This document shows, piece after piece, positions 1 to 36,992 of a DNA stretch of 64,000 nucleotides. How positions within the stretch are numbered: position 1 is the stretch's first letter; each line of letters begins with the position of its first letter. Source of the stretch: an uncultured Actinomycetota bacterium. GTDB taxonomy: Bacteria > Actinomycetota > Actinomycetes > Prado026. Location: assembly GCA_963771835.1 (NCBI GenBank), contig CAVYVA010000006.1:36495-100494 (forward strand), written 5' to 3'. The translations under genes and the position numbers were made by a program. The notes under the pieces are model-generated. The model was not told the DNA's origin. It worked only from the letters and a program-made list of their open reading frames with translations, and did no database searches.

Positions 1-1185
1 GTCGAGGTCACGCTGCACACGCGGTTCACGCGGTGCTCGGGCCCGCTGTCGCTGGGCGACCCCATCTACACGACCACGCTGCTGCCGGGTGAGAAGGTCC
101 GGCTGGCCACCACGGACCGCCGGAGCCGGTTCAGCTTCGACAGCGAGAGCCAGCTGAGCTACCACAGCGAGCAGATGTCCGAGGACCAGTACCGGATGTC
201 CGCCCTGCGGGCGGTGATGTCGGACTCAAGCAGCACCGACAACGGCTCCAGCCGGAACACCGACCAGGGGTCGTGGGACTTCCACGGCGACGCCAGCGGC
301 GGCATCGGGTTCTTCTCGGCCAGCGCGGACGCGAACGCGAAGGGCAGCCACAACGCCTCGTCCACCGCGGACTACCTGCGCGAGCACAAGGCGCACGCGA
401 CGATGGCCGACAACATGTCCGTCGAGGCCACCCGCAAGGCGCACTCGATGTCGATCGGCGAGGTGTCGACCCGCGCGCACTCCGAGGGCGAGTCCGAGGA
501 CCACTTCGAGTCGTCCTCGCGCGAGTTCACCAACCAGAACCAGTGCCACGCGGTCTCGTTCTACTTCTACCGGATCAACAAGTGCGAGACGATCACGTTC
601 GAGCTCGTCGCCATCGACCGGCGGGTCATCGACCCGGTCGCGCCGACGCCGGTCCTGGCCAACCCGGTCCGCGCCGTCGGCCAGATCGCCACCGTCCCGC
701 AGGAGGTCCCCGCGACCGCGACGGCACGGCTCGACGTCGAGGCGCGCGGACTGGCCAGCCAGGCCCAGTACGCCGCGGCCGGCCAGTCGCGGCTGGCATC
801 CCTGTTCGCCGTGGGCGCCTCCTTCGAGCCGGCCGGTGCGCCGCTGCCGGCCGCCGTCCGCACCGCGGCGCTCGCGGAGGTGGACGAGGCGCTGGTCGAG
901 CAGGGCCTGCTGGACAAGGGCACCGGCCTGGTCTCCACGCAGACGCAGGAGGAGATCGGCTTCTCGCGGACCACCTCGCTGCCGACGGCCGGCGTGGTGG
1001 TCAAGGGGTGCCTGGACGACTGCGAGGTCTGCGAACCCGCGCTGAAGCGCAAGATCAAGCTCGACCTGGACCGGCAGGAGCTCGAGAACGAGCTGCTCAA
1101 GCGGCAGATCGAGCTGCTCGACCAGTCGCAGGAGTACCGGTGCTGCCCGCCGGCCGCTCCCGAGCCGGCACCCGCCCAACCCTGA
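1..1185 (+). CDS. Uncharacterised protein, 5'-truncated; Ser/Thr-rich core with amphipathic beta-hairpin, C-terminal Cys motifs and coiled coil (possible beta-pore-forming protein)
   Basis: Frame 1 is open from base 1 (VEVTLHTRFTRCSGPLSLGDPIYTTTLLPGEKVRL...) through the tracked 175..1185 ORF to TGA; strong GC3 codon bias; motifs FTNQNQCHAVSFYFYRINK and LPTAGVVVKGCLDDCEVCE. Confidence 0.85.
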   Translation, partial: VEVTLHTRFTRCSGPLSLGDPIYTTTLLPGEKVRLATTDRRSRFSFDSESQLSYHSEQMSEDQYRMSALRAVMSDSSSTDNGSSRNTDQGSWDFHGDASGGIGFFSASADANAKGSHNASSTADYLREHKAHATMADNMSVEATRKAHSMSIGEVSTRAHSEGESEDHFESSSREFTNQNQCHAVSFYFYRINKCETITFELVAIDRRVIDPVAPTPVLANPVRAVGQIATVPQEVPATATARLDVEARGLASQAQYAAAGQSRLASLFAVGASFEPAGAPLPAAVRTAALAEVDEALVEQGLLDKGTGLVSTQTQEEIGFSRTTSLPTAGVVVKGCLDDCEVCEPALKRKIKLDLDRQELENELLKRQIELLDQSQEYRCCPPAAPEPAPAQP

Positions 1186-1213
1186 CGACCCGACCCGAGC
1201 AGGAGCGTGCACC

Positions 1214-3175
1214 ATGCCGGATGACCTCGACCCCTCCGAGCTCGTCGACGGCGCGCAGGCGATAGCAGCGCTGGCCCAGGACGAGGACCGCTTCCGGGCC
1301 GCCTTCGACGCGTTCCGAGCCTCGGACCGGGACTCGTTCCAGCGGCTGCTCGGCGAGCTCGGCCTGACCGAGCGCTGCGAGCTGGTGACCGAGTGGATCT
1401 GCAGCAAGGAGTGCGTGCTGCTGTGCCTGGAGCTGTGCGGTCCGCCGGTCGAGGGCGACCTGCCGGACCTGCGCGAGTTCGCCGAGGTCCTGGTCAAGGT
1501 CACCGGCGACGAGGAGCTGGTGGAGCGGCTGGCCGAGACCGTCGCCGCCCGCGACGTCGAGGGCTTCCGGTCACTGGTCGCCGAGCTCAAGATCGAGCGG
1601 TACTGCCACCTGCTCTGCCACTGGGTGTGCGCGGTGCGCTGCCGGCTGCTGCGCGAGATCGTCTGCGCGCCGGTGCCGGGCCCGGTCCGGTACCTCGAGG
1701 ACGAGCTCGCCGCCGCCGGCGCCGTCGTGGCCACCCTGGTCGCCGACAAGGAGGCGTTCGCGGTCGCCGAGAAGGCCGTGCTCGCCGGCAACTGCGACCT
1801 GGTCCGGGAGACGGTCGCGCGCCTGCGGCTGACCGACCACTGCGCGATCGTCTGCGAGTGGTTCTGCAGCTGGCGCTGCGTGCGCGTGTGCCGGCTGATG
1901 TGCCGCGGGTTCGACTTCCCGCAGGTCGACCTGTCGCTGGCCGAGGCCTTCGAGTTCGCGAAGGTCACGGCCCGGCTGGCGGCCGAGCCGGACGTCCTGC
2001 CGCGGTTGTCCGCCGCCGTGCAGGCGCAGGACGCACCGGCGTTCGAGGAGATCGTCACCAAGCTGGAGCTGGGCCGGTTCTGCATCCAGCTGTGCCACTG
2101 GATCTGCTCGTGGCAGTGCCACCGCTTCTGCCGCTGCGTGTGCCCGCCGGTGCTGCAGCCGTGGTTCACCCAGGTCGGCCACTTCGACATCTACGCCGAC
2201 ATCGACCCGGGCACCGGCCTGACCAACAAGGGCCTGAGCTACTCCGGCCTGTACTTCAACGGCGGCCCGGACTTCGCGTTCCACGGCTGCCTGGAGCTGC
2301 GCGGGTTCTGCCCGGCGGGGTCACCGATCGACGGGACGCCGATGAAGTACCGCTTCGTGCTCGCCGGCAGCGGCCTGCCGCTCACCGGGAGCCGCGTCTG
2401 CCCAGTGGACGCGGGCACCCGGCGGATCCTGTGGCCGGTCAACTCCAGCGGGGTCGCCGGGACCACGCAGGTCCTGACGTTCCAGTCGATCAGCATCGAG
2501 GGCGCACCGGTCGCGGACACTCCGCCGCCGGCCCCCGGCGACCCGTGGTTCGGGCCGGTCAAGCACGTGATCGCCCCGGACTCCGACGGCTGGATCCCGG
2601 TGGACCAGGACAGCGTGTCCGGAGGCTTCACCACGCTGGTGGGCTTCAACAGCACCGATCCGGTCCCCGGCGGGACGCCGCCCTCGCCGCCGCCCGTGGC
2701 CGGCTCGCCGGTCGCGACCGGCGACCAGAAGAACGGCGCCGACCTGGGCATCACGTTCGAGGCGACCAGGATCTCGTTGCCGCCGGGCCCGCCGGACTCC
2801 ACGAACTCGCTCGCAAAGATCCACATCAACAACTGGGCCGAGGTCAACCTGCTGGACATCACCGAGTTCCACTCCGGCGGCGGCACCGCGTGCACCGGGA
2901 TCACCACCGACCTGCACGTGGAGTACACCACCGACCACGAGCTCATGAAGGAGTGGGACGCGGTCATCACCAGCGCCGCGCTCACCCTGCCGGTGACGGT
3001 GGCCAGCGGGCCGACCGTGCCGGCGCCCAGGGGTGACGGCGCGATCGTCGCGGTGTCCACCACCGGGTTCAAACCCTGCTCGTACGTGGTGACGCTGAGC
3101 ACGCGGGCCGGGCTGACGGACGGACTCATCGACAACGTCGGGTGGAGCCGGCAGCTGACCTTCTGCGTGAAGTAA
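1214..3175 (+). CDS. Uncharacterised 653-aa protein: four ~78-aa helical repeats each ending in CxxxCxWxCxxxCxxxCxxxC, plus a beta-rich C-terminal domain
   Basis: Intact ORF, AGGAG RBS at 1201-1205, repeats visible by eye, 30 Cys counted. Confidence 0.9.
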   Translation: MPDDLDPSELVDGAQAIAALAQDEDRFRAAFDAFRASDRDSFQRLLGELGLTERCELVTEWICSKECVLLCLELCGPPVEGDLPDLREFAEVLVKVTGDEELVERLAETVAARDVEGFRSLVAELKIERYCHLLCHWVCAVRCRLLREIVCAPVPGPVRYLEDELAAAGAVVATLVADKEAFAVAEKAVLAGNCDLVRETVARLRLTDHCAIVCEWFCSWRCVRVCRLMCRGFDFPQVDLSLAEAFEFAKVTARLAAEPDVLPRLSAAVQAQDAPAFEEIVTKLELGRFCIQLCHWICSWQCHRFCRCVCPPVLQPWFTQVGHFDIYADIDPGTGLTNKGLSYSGLYFNGGPDFAFHGCLELRGFCPAGSPIDGTPMKYRFVLAGSGLPLTGSRVCPVDAGTRRILWPVNSSGVAGTTQVLTFQSISIEGAPVADTPPPAPGDPWFGPVKHVIAPDSDGWIPVDQDSVSGGFTTLVGFNSTDPVPGGTPPSPPPVAGSPVATGDQKNGADLGITFEATRISLPPGPPDSTNSLAKIHINNWAEVNLLDITEFHSGGGTACTGITTDLHVEYTTDHELMKEWDAVITSAALTLPVTVASGPTVPAPRGDGAIVAVSTTGFKPCSYVVTLSTRAGLTDGLIDNVGWSRQLTFCVK

Positions 3176-3178
3176 CCG

Positions 3179-3475
3179 CTACCGGTCCAGGAGTCCCTCG
3201 ACGAGCTCGAGCACGCGGGTCCTGGGCACGCCGGCCAGCGCCGGCGCGGCATCCGGCGACGACCAGACGCGCTCGTGCAGGAAGCGGGCGAACGACTCCG
3301 CCGCGTCGACGGTGTCGAACTCGAGGTCGAGCATCAGGTAGCCGGCGTCGTCGAGCGGCCGGCGGATGGCGTGCGCGCGGACGCCCGCACCGGCCCGCAC
3401 CTCGGCGAAGCCGTCGAAAGCTGCCTTCCACGTGCCGTAGTCGGTGATCGCGTGCTCGATCCGCAAGGTGCTCAT
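3179..3475 (-). CDS. Small (98 aa) dimeric alpha+beta barrel / cyclase-like hypothetical protein
   Basis: MSTLRIEHAITDYGTWKAAFD...; ATG at 3475; divergent from the LuxR gene. Confidence 0.7.
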   Translation of the reverse strand: MSTLRIEHAITDYGTWKAAFDGFAEVRAGAGVRAHAIRRPLDDAGYLMLDLEFDTVDAAESFARFLHERVWSSPDAAPALAGVPRTRVLELVEGLLDR

Positions 3476-3553
3476 GGACCGCCACGGTAGGCCGGCCGCG
3501 GGCACCGCAGACATCCCAGATTCCTGGGGGCGGACGGCGCGTACGCTCGCGCC

Positions 3554-4654
3554 GTGCCGAGCCCGAGGACGGCGTCCAAGACCCTCGACCGGATCGAGGC
3601 GGTCGCCGGCCGGGCGGCCGGGGCCGCCGAGCTGCGGGCGGCGCTGCTGGATGTGCTGCGCCCGGCGATCGGCTTCGACGGGTACGTGTGGCTGCTGACG
3701 GACCCGGTCACCACGGTCGGCGCAGCCCCGCTCGCGGACCTGCCCGGCATCGCCCCGGCCGAGCTGCCGGGTCTGATCCGGGCCAGGTACACCAGCGGAG
3801 TCAGCCGCTGGACCGTGCTGACGCAGCAGCCGGACCCGGTGGCGCTGCTGGACTGCGCCGGCGTCGACCACCCGGGCGCGTCCGGGACCGGGCGGTCCGC
3901 GTGGGAGCAGCTGCTGGCCCGGTACGGGATCGGCGCGGTGGCCTCGACGGTGTTCGCCGACGCGTACGGCTGCTGGGGGTTCCTCGACCTGTGGCGCGGC
4001 GTGGCCCGCGCACCCTTCGACGAGGCCGACGCCGCGCTGCTCGCGGGCGCCGCCCCGTCCGTGACCGCCGCCCTACGCAGGTGCCAGGCCCGCACCTTCG
4101 TCGCGCCGGCGCGGCCGCACCGCAGTGACTTCGCTCCGGTCGTGCTGACCCTGGACGACGACCTGCGGATCGTCGGACGGACGGCCGCGTCACAGGACTG
4201 GCTGGACCGGCTGCTGCCCCCCGCGCCCGGCGTCGACGCGGTACCCGCGAGCGTGTTCAACGTGGCTGCGCAGCTGCTCGCCGCCGAGGCCGGCGTCGAC
4301 GACCACCCGGCCAGCTCGCGGACGCATCTGGGCGACGGGTTCTGGCTGACCCTGCGCGCGGCGCGGATGGCGTCCGCCGACGGCACCGACCCGATCGTCG
4401 TGAGCATCGAGGAGACCTCCGCCGTCGAACGGGTGGAGCTGTTCACCCGGGCGCACGGCCTCAGCGCGCGCGAGCACGAGCTCTTCGGACTGCTCGCCAC
4501 CGGCGCCGACACCCGCGCGATGGCTCGCCTGATGGGACTGTCCGAGCACACCGTCCAGGACCACCTGAAGTCGATCTTCGCCAAGACCGGGGCGCGCGAC
4601 CGAGTCACGCTGCTCTCGCGGGCGCTGGGCACCGGGCTCACCCCGGCTCCGTGA
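3554..4654 (+). CDS. GAF-like + LuxR-type HTH transcriptional regulator
   Basis: C-terminal LSAREHELFGLLATGADTRAMARLMGLSEHTVQDHLKSIFAKTG. Confidence 0.85.
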   Translation: MPSPRTASKTLDRIEAVAGRAAGAAELRAALLDVLRPAIGFDGYVWLLTDPVTTVGAAPLADLPGIAPAELPGLIRARYTSGVSRWTVLTQQPDPVALLDCAGVDHPGASGTGRSAWEQLLARYGIGAVASTVFADAYGCWGFLDLWRGVARAPFDEADAALLAGAAPSVTAALRRCQARTFVAPARPHRSDFAPVVLTLDDDLRIVGRTAASQDWLDRLLPPAPGVDAVPASVFNVAAQLLAAEAGVDDHPASSRTHLGDGFWLTLRAARMASADGTDPIVVSIEETSAVERVELFTRAHGLSAREHELFGLLATGADTRAMARLMGLSEHTVQDHLKSIFAKTGARDRVTLLSRALGTGLTPAP

Positions 4655-17555: not shown

Positions 17556-18691
17556 CTAGCCCAGCCCGGGCAGCAGCGCGGCGAACTCTTCCAGGCTGCG
17601 CAGGTCGTGGCCGGACAGCAGCAGGTCGACGTGCGGCGCGGCCACCATCATGCCGAGCGTGCTCGGCCGGAACTGCGCGTCGCTCGCCCTTGTGCGGGTT
17701 CAGCCACACCACCCGATGGCTCAGCCTCGACAGCCGCTCCATCGCCGTGGCCAGCACGGCCGGGTCGCCGCGGTCGAGACCGTCCGAGCAGATCACCACG
17801 ATCCCGCCCCGGCACACGCCGCGCCGGCCCCAGTCCCGCACGAACGCCTGCAGCGAGTCGCCGATCCGGGTCCCGCCCTCCCAGTCGAAGACGGCCCTGG
17901 CGGCGCGTTCCAGGGCGTCGTCGGGACGGCGGTGCTCCAGCTCCCTGGTGATCCGGGTCAGCCGGGTGCCGAAGCAGAACACCTCGACCCGGGCCGCCGC
18001 CCGGCTGGTGGAGTACGCGAACTGCAGCAGGTTGCGCGAGTAGTCCGCCATCGACCCGGAGACGTCCAGGATGAGGACCAGCGGCCGTGGCCGGAGCCGG
18101 CGCCGGCGCCAGTAGCAGCTCGGCCGGCTCGCCGTGCGTGCGCATCGTCTCGCGCACCGTCCGGCGCAGGTCGGGCGCTCGCCCGCGCGAGCGGGCGCCG
18201 ACCGTCCGGCGGGTGCGGCGGCGCGGCGGCGTCAGCCGGATCCGCGCCATGATCCGGCGCAGCGCAGCCAGCTCCTCGGGGGTGCAGGCCGCGAACGACT
18301 TGTTCTTGCAGCGCGTCCGCGTCCGAGGCGATCAGGCCGAGCTCGGCCTCGCTGCTCGCGGGCGGTCCCGCCCCGGCTCGGTCTCCGGGACCTGCAGGAC
18401 CGCAGCGGTCTCGACCCTGGCCCGGATCGTCGGCCGGACCGGCTCGGGGAGCCCGTCGGCCTCGTCCAGGAAGAACCGCCGGAACACCCGGTCGTACACC
18501 GGGATCTGGTCGTGCCGGGTCACCATCGTGGTCCGCCCCGCCCAGTACAGGTCGAGCAGGTCGGTCGGGTCCAGCGGGGCCATCGCCGCGCAGTACGTCA
18601 GCACGTCGCCGGACCCGACCGGCAGCCCGGCCGAGCGCAGCTCGCGGGCGAAGTCGACGAGCAGGGCGACGAACGACGCGTCGTCAGGCAC
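17556..18691 (-). CDS. coxE: CoxE-type VWA-domain protein; frameshifted
   Basis: FARELRSAGLPVG, LVLILDVSGSMADYSR (MIDAS-like), EVFCFGTRLTRIT, WEGGTRIGDSL, VVICSDGLDRG. Confidence 0.88.
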
Positions 18692-35216: not shown

Positions 35217-36992
35217 ATGCACGACATCGCCGAGTTCCTGCGCCGGCACCCGCCGTTCGACGCGCTCGACGACGCGGCGCTGGAACGGGTGTCGGACGCC
35301 GTGCACATCGAGTTCTTCCCCCGTGGCGCCGTGGTCCTCGAGGCGGAGGACGCGGGCGGCTCCGGTTACGTCATCAGGACCGGGACCGTCGACCTGATCG
35401 AGGACGGCCGGGTGGTCGACCACCGGGAGGTGGGGGACGTGTTCGGGGTCGCGTCCACCCTGACCGGCGCGCCGACGGCGCTGCGGGTGAGCGCCCACGA
35501 CGACCTGCTCGTGTACCGGTTCCCGGCCTCGGCCCTGGGGTCGCCCGGGACCGGCGCAACCATGGGGACCGGCTCCGTCGGGCCCGCGGTCCGGTCGATC
35601 CTGCGCCCGGCGGTCGTGCTCGACCCGGACGACCGGGTGCGCGAGGCGGTGCTCCGGATGGGAGAGGCGGGGGTGTCCGCCGTCCTCGTCCGGCAACGCG
35701 ATGGCGGGCTGGGGATCGTCACCGACCGCGACCTGCGCAGCCGGGTGCTGGCCGTGGACGGGCGCGGACCCGAGACGCCCCTGGCAGCGGTGATGAGCGA
35801 GGACGCGGTCTCGACCGGGGCCGGGGCTCCGGCCGACGAGGCGCTGCTGCTCATGCTCGAGCACGCGGTGCGGCACCTGCCGGTCGTCGCCCGCGACGGC
35901 ACGGTGGTCGGCCTGGTCGAGGACGTGGACCTGCTCGCCGCCGAGGGGCACGCCCCGTTCCGGCTGCGCCGCGCGATCACGACGGCCGCGGGCGTCGAGG
36001 ACCTGGTCGACCTGGCCCGACGGCTCCCGCAGTCGCTGCTGTCCGCGGACGCCGCGGGCGTGGCACCCCTGCGGGTGATGGCGACGCGCTCGATCATCGT
36101 CGAGGCGATGATCCGCCGGCTGCTCGAGCTCACGGTGCAGGCGTGCGGCCCTGCGCCCGCCCCGTTCGCCTGGCTGGTCCTGGGCAGCACGGGCCGCCGC
36201 GAGTCCTTCCCCGCGTCCGACGCGGACACCGCGCTGGTGTGGGACGCCGACGACGAGGACGCCGCGACGGGCAGGTGGATGGAAGACCTGGCCGGGCGGG
36301 TCGTCGGCGCGCTCGCCGACTGCGGCGTGCGCAGCGACGAGCACGGCGTCGTGGCGGCGGACCCGCGCTTCGCCCGCCCGCGCACGCAGTGGCAGCGCTC
36401 TGTCGCCCGCTGGCTGGCCGACCCGATGGCGACCGACGCGCTGACGTACGTGTCGGCCCTGCTCGACGGCCGGGTCGTCGCCGGCGCCGGCGCCGGGCCG
36501 GACCGCATGCTCGGCGAGGCTCTGTCGGCGACGGCCCGGGACGAGGCGATGGTGCGCGCCCTCGGGCGCCATGCGCTCGCCCATCGTCCACCGACGGGTT
36601 TCGTCCGCGAGCTCGTCGTCCAGCACACCGGCGAGAACCGCGGCCGGCTGGACCTCAAGCTGCACGGGATGACCCCGGTCGTCGACCTCGCCCGCTACGG
36701 CGGTGTGGCCGCACGGTCGACGGCGGTCGACACTCCGCAACGGCTGCGGGACGCGGCCGCCGCCGGGGTGCTGCGCGACGGCGACGCCGCGATGCTCGAC
36801 GAGGTCTTCACCCTCGTCGCCGGACTGCGGCTGGAGCGCCAGCTCGACGCGATCCGGGCTGGTCAGGAGCCGGACGACCTGCTCGACCCCCGGACTCTCA
36901 GCCCGTTCGCACGCCGGCACCTGCGTGACGGCTTCCGGGCGGTCACCCAGGTCCAGCACTGGCTGCAGGGCGTCCTGGCGCTGGGCGGCTGA
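35217..36992 (+). CDS. cNMP-binding + CBS + DUF294 GlnD/GlnE-like nucleotidyltransferase
   Basis: N-terminal cNMP domain (FLRRHPPFDAL), CBS pair (GIVTDRDLR, VRHLPVV), NT motif LGSTGRRESFPASDADTAL, DLKLHG. Confidence 0.85.
   Translation: MHDIAEFLRRHPPFDALDDAALERVSDAVHIEFFPRGAVVLEAEDAGGSGYVIRTGTVDLIEDGRVVDHREVGDVFGVASTLTGAPTALRVSAHDDLLVYRFPASALGSPGTGATMGTGSVGPAVRSILRPAVVLDPDDRVREAVLRMGEAGVSAVLVRQRDGGLGIVTDRDLRSRVLAVDGRGPETPLAAVMSEDAVSTGAGAPADEALLLMLEHAVRHLPVVARDGTVVGLVEDVDLLAAEGHAPFRLRRAITTAAGVEDLVDLARRLPQSLLSADAAGVAPLRVMATRSIIVEAMIRRLLELTVQACGPAPAPFAWLVLGSTGRRESFPASDADTALVWDADDEDAATGRWMEDLAGRVVGALADCGVRSDEHGVVAADPRFARPRTQWQRSVARWLADPMATDALTYVSALLDGRVVAGAGAGPDRMLGEALSATARDEAMVRALGRHALAHRPPTGFVRELVVQHTGENRGRLDLKLHGMTPVVDLARYGGVAARSTAVDTPQRLRDAAAAGVLRDGDAAMLDEVFTLVAGLRLERQLDAIRAGQEPDDLLDPRTLSPFARRHLRDGFRAVTQVQHWLQGVLALGG

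Follow-up and report, generated by a model that had tools for sequence, protein, structure and literature searches.

The first gene of a 64,000-nt stretch of DNA (the window, positions 36,495 to 100,494 of contig CAVYVA010000006.1, assembly GCA_963771835.1) from an uncultured Actinomycetota bacterium of the lineage Prado026 encodes a 440-amino-acid (aa) protein, P0001, whose family has no name, domain model, solved structure or recognizable fold relative in the PDB. The family combines high sequence conservation between phyla, a predicted elongated architecture ending in a coiled coil, and ten conserved cysteines that tend to be lost in pairs. Our tentative, though plausible, reading is that the 440-aa protein is a cysteine-stapled, coiled-coil-mediated oligomer, serving as a scaffold or assembly that binds optional, lineage-specific large partners. 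The initial annotation of the window had proposed an oligomerising beta-pore-former-like protein forming a two-gene unit with a Cys-rich partner encoded downstream. That interpretation is partly supported: the oligomerising character is plausible and the two-gene unit exists in the lineage of the window, whereas the 440-aa protein does not qualify as a secreted beta-pore-forming toxin of the usual kind.

The window begins inside the gene, as had been noted, and the missing 5' part was recovered by fetching the upstream DNA. In contig coordinates (window, G000:C6:36495-100494) the start codon ATG is located at G000:C6:36357, 138 bp before the window edge, and is preceded by GGGAG; the complete open reading frame (ORF), L003:18358-19680, ends with the TGA at window positions 1183-1185. 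The part lying outside the window carries a further cysteine motif, PCCPVLEECPPC, near the N-terminus. The previously quoted sequence features are accurate: the translation of ORF 1-1185 (+) is exact, the stretch SWDFHGDASGGIGFFSASADANAKGS corresponds to residues 137-162, and the CLDDCEVC cluster, the heptad helix and the terminal YRCCP are all found in the C-terminal part of the protein (Table 1). The GC content at third codon positions is 0.96, the same as in the neighbouring genes, which argues that the gene was not recently acquired at this place.

At least 2,331 relatives of P0001 were found in a search of a set of 5.8 billion proteins, and those bearing names are all called "hypothetical", except for a single DUF2382 label. 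An exhaustive HMMER search yielded 486 clusters (counted as 50%-identity representatives), with full-length members reaching down to 26-30% identity. P0001 is 65-68% identical to proteins from Rhodanobacter, Thiomonas, other Betaproteobacteria and Acidobacteria, and this level of similarity thus spans the Actinomycetota, Proteobacteria and Acidobacteria; identity of 65% between phyla is about the conservation level of core housekeeping proteins. In an alignment of 45 family sequences with identities down to 26% (alignment A1), N224 is invariant, and E216, R220, F222, N226 and H229 are each conserved in at least 90% of the sequences. The set of invariant polar residues of the family comprises E77, R86, E107, E216, R220, N224, N226 and H229. 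An acidic, His-containing motif, GESEDHFESSS, is conserved as well, and the N-termini of the family members are polar and variable. A Pfam scan of the full-length protein with E values up to 10 returned one spurious match of 7.8 bits, the NCBIfam, PHROGs and PADLOC collections gave zero matches, and nothing significant was obtained among the PDB sequences. A literature search with the sequence motifs of the family found nothing relevant; no database family, solved structure or paper found in this way covers it.

The distribution of the family is very patchy. The 440-aa gene is absent from each of 300 further genomes drawn evenly from the whole phylum, and among 60 relatives it occurs only in one genome of the same genus and two of the same family. 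Carriage by mobile elements was considered and rejected, with no matches in 72,556 plasmids and none in a pattern scan of the IMG/VR viral contigs. The loci compared below were collected by a single-sequence pattern scan of genome contigs, the patterns of which were too specific (4 loci), and by an alignment-based scan of metagenomes (80 loci).

The AlphaFold2 model of P0001, built from alignment A1, has a mean predicted local distance difference test score (pLDDT) of 75 and a predicted template modelling score (pTM) of 0.66. Four very long beta strands (residues 22-38, 44-73, 229-256 and 367-388) and long helices (107-125, 165-193, 287-316 and 330-346) are predicted in addition to the C-terminal heptad helix, and two parts are modelled with low confidence, the N-terminal arm (1-20) and a Gly/Ser-rich segment (124-156). 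The model thus describes an elongated sheet made up of four very long strands, with long helices behind it and a coiled coil at its end. The 35-residue predicted coiled coil makes the earlier suggestion of an oligomerising protein plausible. Neither a signal peptide nor a transmembrane helix was detected (maximum Kyte-Doolittle hydropathy over 19 residues, KD19, of 1.18).

The only significant structural relative found with Foldseek is the protein A0A5K0U6Q4 from the giant virus Yasminevirus sp. GU-2018 (E 2.9e-15, 24% identity over 304 columns). It is very likely a true homologue; at 642 aa it is larger than the 440-aa protein, and it is itself uncharacterised, hence functionally uninformative.

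Table 1. Features of the 440-aa gene P0001 and the adjoining partner gene, in window coordinates (nt); residue numbers refer to full-length proteins.
Feature	Position	Strand	Basis or remark
P0001 gene, 3' 1,185 nt of 1,323 nt (394 C-terminal codons)	1..1185	+	ORF translation
Gly/Ser-rich segment of constrained length (residues 121-162), containing the alternation at nt 271-348	223..348	+	AlphaFold2 and homologues
Most conserved family motif, ESSSREFxNxNxCHA (residues 216-230)	508..552	+	Alignment A1; includes invariant N224 and Cys228
Cysteine cluster CLDDCEVC (Cys383, 387, 390)	1009..1032	+	Alignment; Cys383 lost with Cys13, Cys390 with Cys228
C-terminal heptad helix, 35 residues (392-426), likely a coiled-coil oligomerisation element	1036..1140	+	AlphaFold2, pLDDT 90-96
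Terminal YRCCP with vicinal Cys427/428	1135..1149	+	Conserved in nearly all full-length homologues; both kept or lost together
Intergenic spacer, 28 nt, with GGAG at 1202-1205 before the partner ATG at 1214	1186..1213	+	Sequence
Partner gene, 653 aa	1214..3175	+	N-terminal half, four Cys-ladder helical repeats; C-terminal half (from ~317), all-beta

Ten cysteines are conserved in the family, at positions 12, 13, 22, 58, 228, 383, 387, 390, 427 and 428, while Cys19 and Cys241 are lineage-specific. Their pattern of loss is pairwise. Among 150 cluster representatives, and with kinship ignored, the strongest associations (phi coefficient) were obtained for positions 427/428 (0.77), 22/58 (0.76), 13/383 (0.63) and 228/390 (0.60). 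Cys13 and Cys383 are missing jointly from six diverse members (P0243, P0249, P0306, P0325, P0330 and P0337), and Cys22 and Cys58 from four (P0249, P0274, P0287 and P0307). Disulfide partners are lost pairwise while the remaining cysteines are kept, whereas a four-ligand metal site would be lost as a whole; the observed pattern therefore fits disulfide-type staples or latches in the 440-aa family rather than a four-ligand metal site.

Three unrelated classes of large proteins are encoded downstream of the 440-aa gene in different lineages. Downstream genes were classified wherever at least 1.5 kb of sequence follows the 440-aa gene, which holds for 45 loci if near-duplicates are counted. The Cys-ladder protein encoded in the window occurs in approximately three independent cases, an unrelated partner of ~730 aa in approximately three (Rhodanobacter, Chitinophagales and L028/29), and a third type of ~750 aa in one or two (L088/L091); the remaining loci have an unrelated downstream gene or a gene on the other strand. 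The suspicion that the C-terminal half of the Cys-ladder protein is homologous to the ~730-aa partner of Rhodanobacter and Chitinophagales, which was based on HINNW and C..VY..T(D/N)G-like motifs recognized by eye, was rejected (hhalign probability 0.1%). The third partner type has a link of a different kind to the family: its first ~104 residues match, at 45% identity (E 3e-20), an extension at the N-terminus of the family member P0330, an uninterrupted ORF of 526 aa (L120:293-1873) known from a single contig of 2.2 kb. This domain of ~100 aa (MAI.MQGSW...RFII.GA...DFNDLIL), which has no Pfam family, opens the ~750-aa partner gene L091:5698-7971, and its fusion in P0330 suggests a physical tie between the partners and the 440-aa protein.

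On this evidence, the tentative model of a stapled oligomer can be put as follows. Cysteine staples would tie the flexible N-terminal arm (Cys12/13/22), the strand ends (Cys58/228/383/387/390) and the C-terminal tail (Cys427/428); the protein would form a homo-oligomer through the coiled coil, working as a redox-locked scaffold or assembly; and the large lineage-specific partners, of which three unrelated classes are seen, would dock on this assembly as optional components. Several points weigh against the model. The counts behind the cysteine covariation are small and ignore kinship, and both the oligomerisation and the disulfides are inferred from the sequences and the predicted structure. 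The bacterial cytoplasm is reducing, and conserved disulfides in a leaderless protein would have to be accounted for in some particular way, for example by oxidative stress, by release from the cell, or by the cysteines binding metal instead. The invariant polar residues E77, R86, E107, E216, R220, N224, N226 and H229 would fit an enzyme or a ligand site, too. Finally, the gene neighbourhoods of the family are heterogeneous and show no functional theme.

A known system with a comparable element is provided by the Ena endospore-appendage subunits (DUF3992) of Bacillus cereus, in which an N-terminal CC...C motif cross-links adjoining subunits by disulfides. P0001 has a flexible N-terminal arm with such a motif, and both proteins lack a leader or assemble independently of classical pilus machinery. 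The low-confidence arm bears Cys12, Cys13 and Cys22, and the covariation of 13 with 383 and of 22 with 58 is compatible with bonds within or between subunits. However, P0001 has no match to the DUF3992 jellyroll domain or to another Pfam family, is approximately four times larger, is predicted to consist of long strands and long helices, and belongs to a family found mostly in non-sporulating phyla. The 440-aa protein lacks every testable membership feature of both the Ena and the aerolysin-type families, which it resembles in its N-terminal Cys arm and in its overall look, respectively.

The resemblance to aerolysin-type toxins is the starting point of the rival explanation closest to the initial annotation, namely a redox-latched beta-pore former. 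According to this explanation, which we consider unlikely, the segment 121-162 would refold into a transmembrane hairpin and the coiled coil would drive ring assembly, the protein acting either inside the cell, in the manner of gasdermins, or after lysis, in the manner of crystal toxins. Several properties of the segment would favour such an element: its length is tightly constrained (39-53 residues, median 41, in 147 full-length homologues), it is flanked by helices, it is left unresolved by AlphaFold2 (pLDDT ~30 over residues 124-156), and short alternating runs within it are conserved. The alternation of hydrophobic and polar residues noted there is real in P0001, though unexceptional, with a beta-periodic hydrophobic moment of 1.2-1.5 versus 2.1-2.2 in two other stretches of the same protein. 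The segment SWDFHGDASGGIGFFSASADANAKGS is nearly invariant among close homologues. Its conservation as a hairpin does not extend further: in 26 diverse homologues, where the Gly/Ser-rich segment consists of 20% Ser and 18% Gly, only two runs of five residues each (137-141 and 156-160) still alternate, and in distant homologues the middle and the second arm are Gly-rich, with runs of up to eight glycines. The insertion hairpins of aerolysin-type toxins have two arms of ~10 strictly alternating residues, and two arms of approximately five residues, the second of them turning to poly-Gly in distant members, would be too short and too polar to span a bilayer.

Comparison of folds does not favour the pore former either. 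Foldseek found nothing significant for the P0001 model in the PDB (best E 0.32; template modelling scores 0.08-0.13; root-mean-square deviations 15-35 A), the aerolysin prepore and parasporin-2 being matched with E values of 1.0 and 1.4. Pore formers (pleurotolysin, Tpp80Aa1, Cry78Aa, aerolysin, leukocidins, parasporin-2 and NetF) make up approximately half of the top 50 PDB matches, which are all non-significant; at such scores, the position of the pore formers in the list indicates only that they have very long beta hairpins in common with the model. Likewise, the only PDB sequences matched by the family profile are those of the anthrax protective antigen PA-63 (profile positions 127-181), and these matches, with E values of 5.6-8.2 and ~9 bits, are at chance level; P0001 has no Pfam match of the protective-antigen type. 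No profile of Aerolysin, ETX_MTX2 or a related toxin family in Pfam matches P0001, and the proposed beta-pore-former fold is not borne out. The likeness to aerolysin/ETX-MTX2 toxins lies in the elongated shape with very long antiparallel strands and in a Ser/Gly-rich segment with some alternation. The differences are the missing significant match, the missing signal peptide, alternating runs that are too short and unconserved (5 residues instead of ~10), ten conserved, paired cysteines, and the C-terminal coiled coil. Moreover, the family is 65-68% identical across phyla, in contrast to the extreme divergence typical of toxins. Three findings had originally been named as telling against the pore-former interpretation (an unrelated predicted fold, alternation not conserved in homologues, and homologues not co-occurring with the Cys-repeat gene), and two of the three were largely what we found.

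Proteases adjoin the gene in a few loci, as would suit a protease-triggered pore: they account for about 5 of the 54 distinct downstream neighbours, with Peptidase_S8 found twice (L074 and L079), a TPR-CHAT protease once (L080), and calpain in one species (L004 and L082). A gasdermin-like logic with protease neighbours was rejected, since the Pfam tallies show a heterogeneous set of neighbours in which proteases are few. No gasdermin occurs in the top 50 Foldseek matches, PADLOC returned no defence match, and no protease is regularly adjacent, unlike in bacterial gasdermin systems. Overall, the toxin reading is weak because the alternating runs are short, an export signal is missing and divergence is very slow.

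A second explanation, improbable in our view, is handling of soft metals, sulfur or redox equivalents: jointly with the Cys-ladder partner, the vicinal CC pairs on the flexible arms at both termini and the CxxxCxxC cluster would bind or transfer Cu(I), Zn, As(III) or Hg, or would be carriers of persulfides. In its favour are the conservation of ten cysteines in a protein that has no leader and is presumably cytoplasmic, the four Cys-ladder helices of the partner, the conserved GESEDHFESSS motif, and a ligand-binding LysR regulator encoded with the two genes in the lineage of the window. The pairwise loss of cysteines, with the others staying, is the signature of disulfide pairs and speaks against it. 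Furthermore, the Cys-ladder partner is absent for most members of the family, genes for metal resistance or metal transport are not a recurring feature of the neighbourhoods, and the LysR protein is neither an OxyR nor a metal-type equivalog. With respect to known systems, the partner (and not the 440-aa protein) recalls the copper-storage four-helix bundles Csp1/Csp3 by its N-terminal helices with a cysteine at every fourth residue; it differs from them in having no sequence or family match and an extra beta-rich C-terminal half of ~330 aa, and it is linked to the 440-aa protein in particular lineages only.

A further reading, which we hold to be quite unlikely, is that of a new-fold cysteine-latched protein, inert in the reduced cytoplasm, in which oxidation or another trigger would free the Gly/Ser-rich segment and the coiled coil to give a membrane-perforating or lattice-forming oligomer; it would be a hitherto unseen cell-fate or envelope effector of many bacterial phyla and giant viruses, with interchangeable large beta-rich docking partners. 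Very unlikely is an enzyme of a new fold, with E77, R86, E107, E216, R220, N224, N226 and H229 as the active site and the cysteines as purely structural elements: conservation peaks at polar or charged columns and not at hydrophobic ones, it is very high over the whole length, and the gene usually stands alone amid varied housekeeping genes, as do those of many enzymes, but no catalytic family or fold is resembled, and predicted strands of 30 residues, helices of 30-35 residues and a coiled coil suggest a structural protein of elongated shape rather than a compact catalytic domain.

Returning to the stapled-oligomer model, the partner encoded in the window deserves a separate description. As previously stated, its gene starts 28 nt downstream of the 440-aa gene with its own ribosome-binding site, and the short gap makes co-transcription of the two genes likely; no terminator-like site or hairpin was found in the spacer. 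The AlphaFold2 model of the 653-aa protein (pLDDT 85.6) consists of helices at residues 8-309 and strands at 317-652. The protein has no family in Pfam or NCBIfam, and for its beta-rich half Foldseek returned only generic, non-significant Ig-like matches (among them pilins, SiiE and arrestin; a resemblance to tandem Ig-type beta-sandwiches). Its beta-rich half (window 2162-3172) is a separate family, for which 132 proteins from several phyla were found, including relatives with 42-50% identity in Pedobacter, Kiloniellaceae, Anaerolineae and Limisphaerales. In a few of these relatives transthyretin-like/CarboxypepD_reg N-termini replace the Cys ladder. The homologues in Kiloniellaceae and Phycicoccus are solitary, and the 440-aa gene is absent from those genomes. 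A genome of the same family, G309, has at C325:2313-2789 (L104) an open frame of 464 aa whose match to the partner profile is confined to positions 5-160, corresponding to the first Cys-ladder repeats (E 1.5e-43); the contig is different from that bearing its 440-aa gene.

The genes for a LysR regulator, the 440-aa protein and the 653-aa protein are adjacent and co-directional in the genome of the window and in the same-genus genome G301. The same layout is found in a near-identical metagenome-assembled genome (L007), in L013, where the partner is 67% identical, and in the closely related loci L018-L022. In another genome of the same genus, G302, both flanks are retained at 71-76% DNA identity, and the three-gene block is replaced by an oppositely oriented gene for a 509-aa drug-efflux-like transporter of the major facilitator superfamily, which is likewise flanked by the HtrA-like and LuxR-type genes (L119:2138-3667, G302:C1). 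The block thus behaves as an accessory cassette. The two-gene unit proposed in the initial annotation therefore stands as a conserved unit of this lineage (the genome of the window, G301, L013 and L018-L022); as a family-wide arrangement it fails, the adjacency being found in only ~3 independent loci of 45. Pairing is not obligate, given that the 440-aa gene occurs without the Cys-ladder partner in G359, G360, G361 and G306, and a partner homologue is present in G357 and G358, which lack the 440-aa gene. An ORF of 230 aa at window positions 3179-3871 (-), beyond the cassette, has no Pfam or NCBIfam match and is 52% identical to its counterpart at the same position in G302; there is an overlap between this ORF and the beginning of the LuxR-type gene, which is encoded on the other strand.

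The cassette LysR is closest to AlsR, CatM and BenM and scores far under every equivalog cut-off; its assignment as an OxyR-type redox regulator was accordingly rejected. A common upstream motif, CT(C/G)TGCTCGGA-n-T-n-GC-n-TTTCC ... GGGCT(C/G)TGCTG, was identified at the 440-aa genes of L003, L013, L016, L020 and L025. In L003, the locus of the window, it lies at 18270-18357, in the 84-nt gap 5' of the 440-aa gene and just outside the window. LysR was confirmed at the motif-bearing loci L003, L013, L020 and L025 and not detected in L016, and the motif is absent from the LysR-less loci L008, L017 and L098. The comparison of these upstream regions suggests that the motif is probably the operator or promoter of the cassette.

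Elsewhere in the family, no recurrent theme emerged when the Pfam domains of the distinct neighbours were tallied (54 downstream and 55 upstream). In Rhodanobacter (L004:6768-8000; L082), a canonical sigma-54 promoter, TGGCATGTTCGTTGC, precedes the beginning of the tblastn match by 179 nt and the annotated ATG by ~100 nt. A PspF-like activator without a sensor domain is encoded directly upstream, and a calpain-type Peptidase_C2 is encoded two genes downstream. General control of the sigma-54/PspF type was rejected: the TGGCAT-N5-TTGC promoter and the PspF-like activator occur in 2 of 72 distinct upstream regions, both from Rhodanobacter. Minority contexts directly 3' of the 440-family genes include two independent types of radical-SAM enzymes, a TPR-CHAT protease and subtilisin-like peptidases, and a further neighbour is an 859-aa protein with a sub-threshold Zn-phospholipase-C match (coordinates of these neighbours: L069:7422-8603, L070:1707-2897, L077:2622-3548, L080:7499-10711, L074:7419-8891, L079:1451-3013 and L016:2343-4922).

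For annotation of the family, these results mean that the label "beta-pore-former" should not be propagated and that the link to the Cys-ladder gene is to be treated as a local cassette, not as a rule for the family. Families as large, conserved and unnamed as this one are a likely place for new cell biology. Covarying cysteine pairs in a leaderless protein, a probable homologue in a giant virus and three unrelated, swappable partners, one domain of which is sometimes fused to the 440-aa protein, point to an assembly or switch of what may be a new kind.

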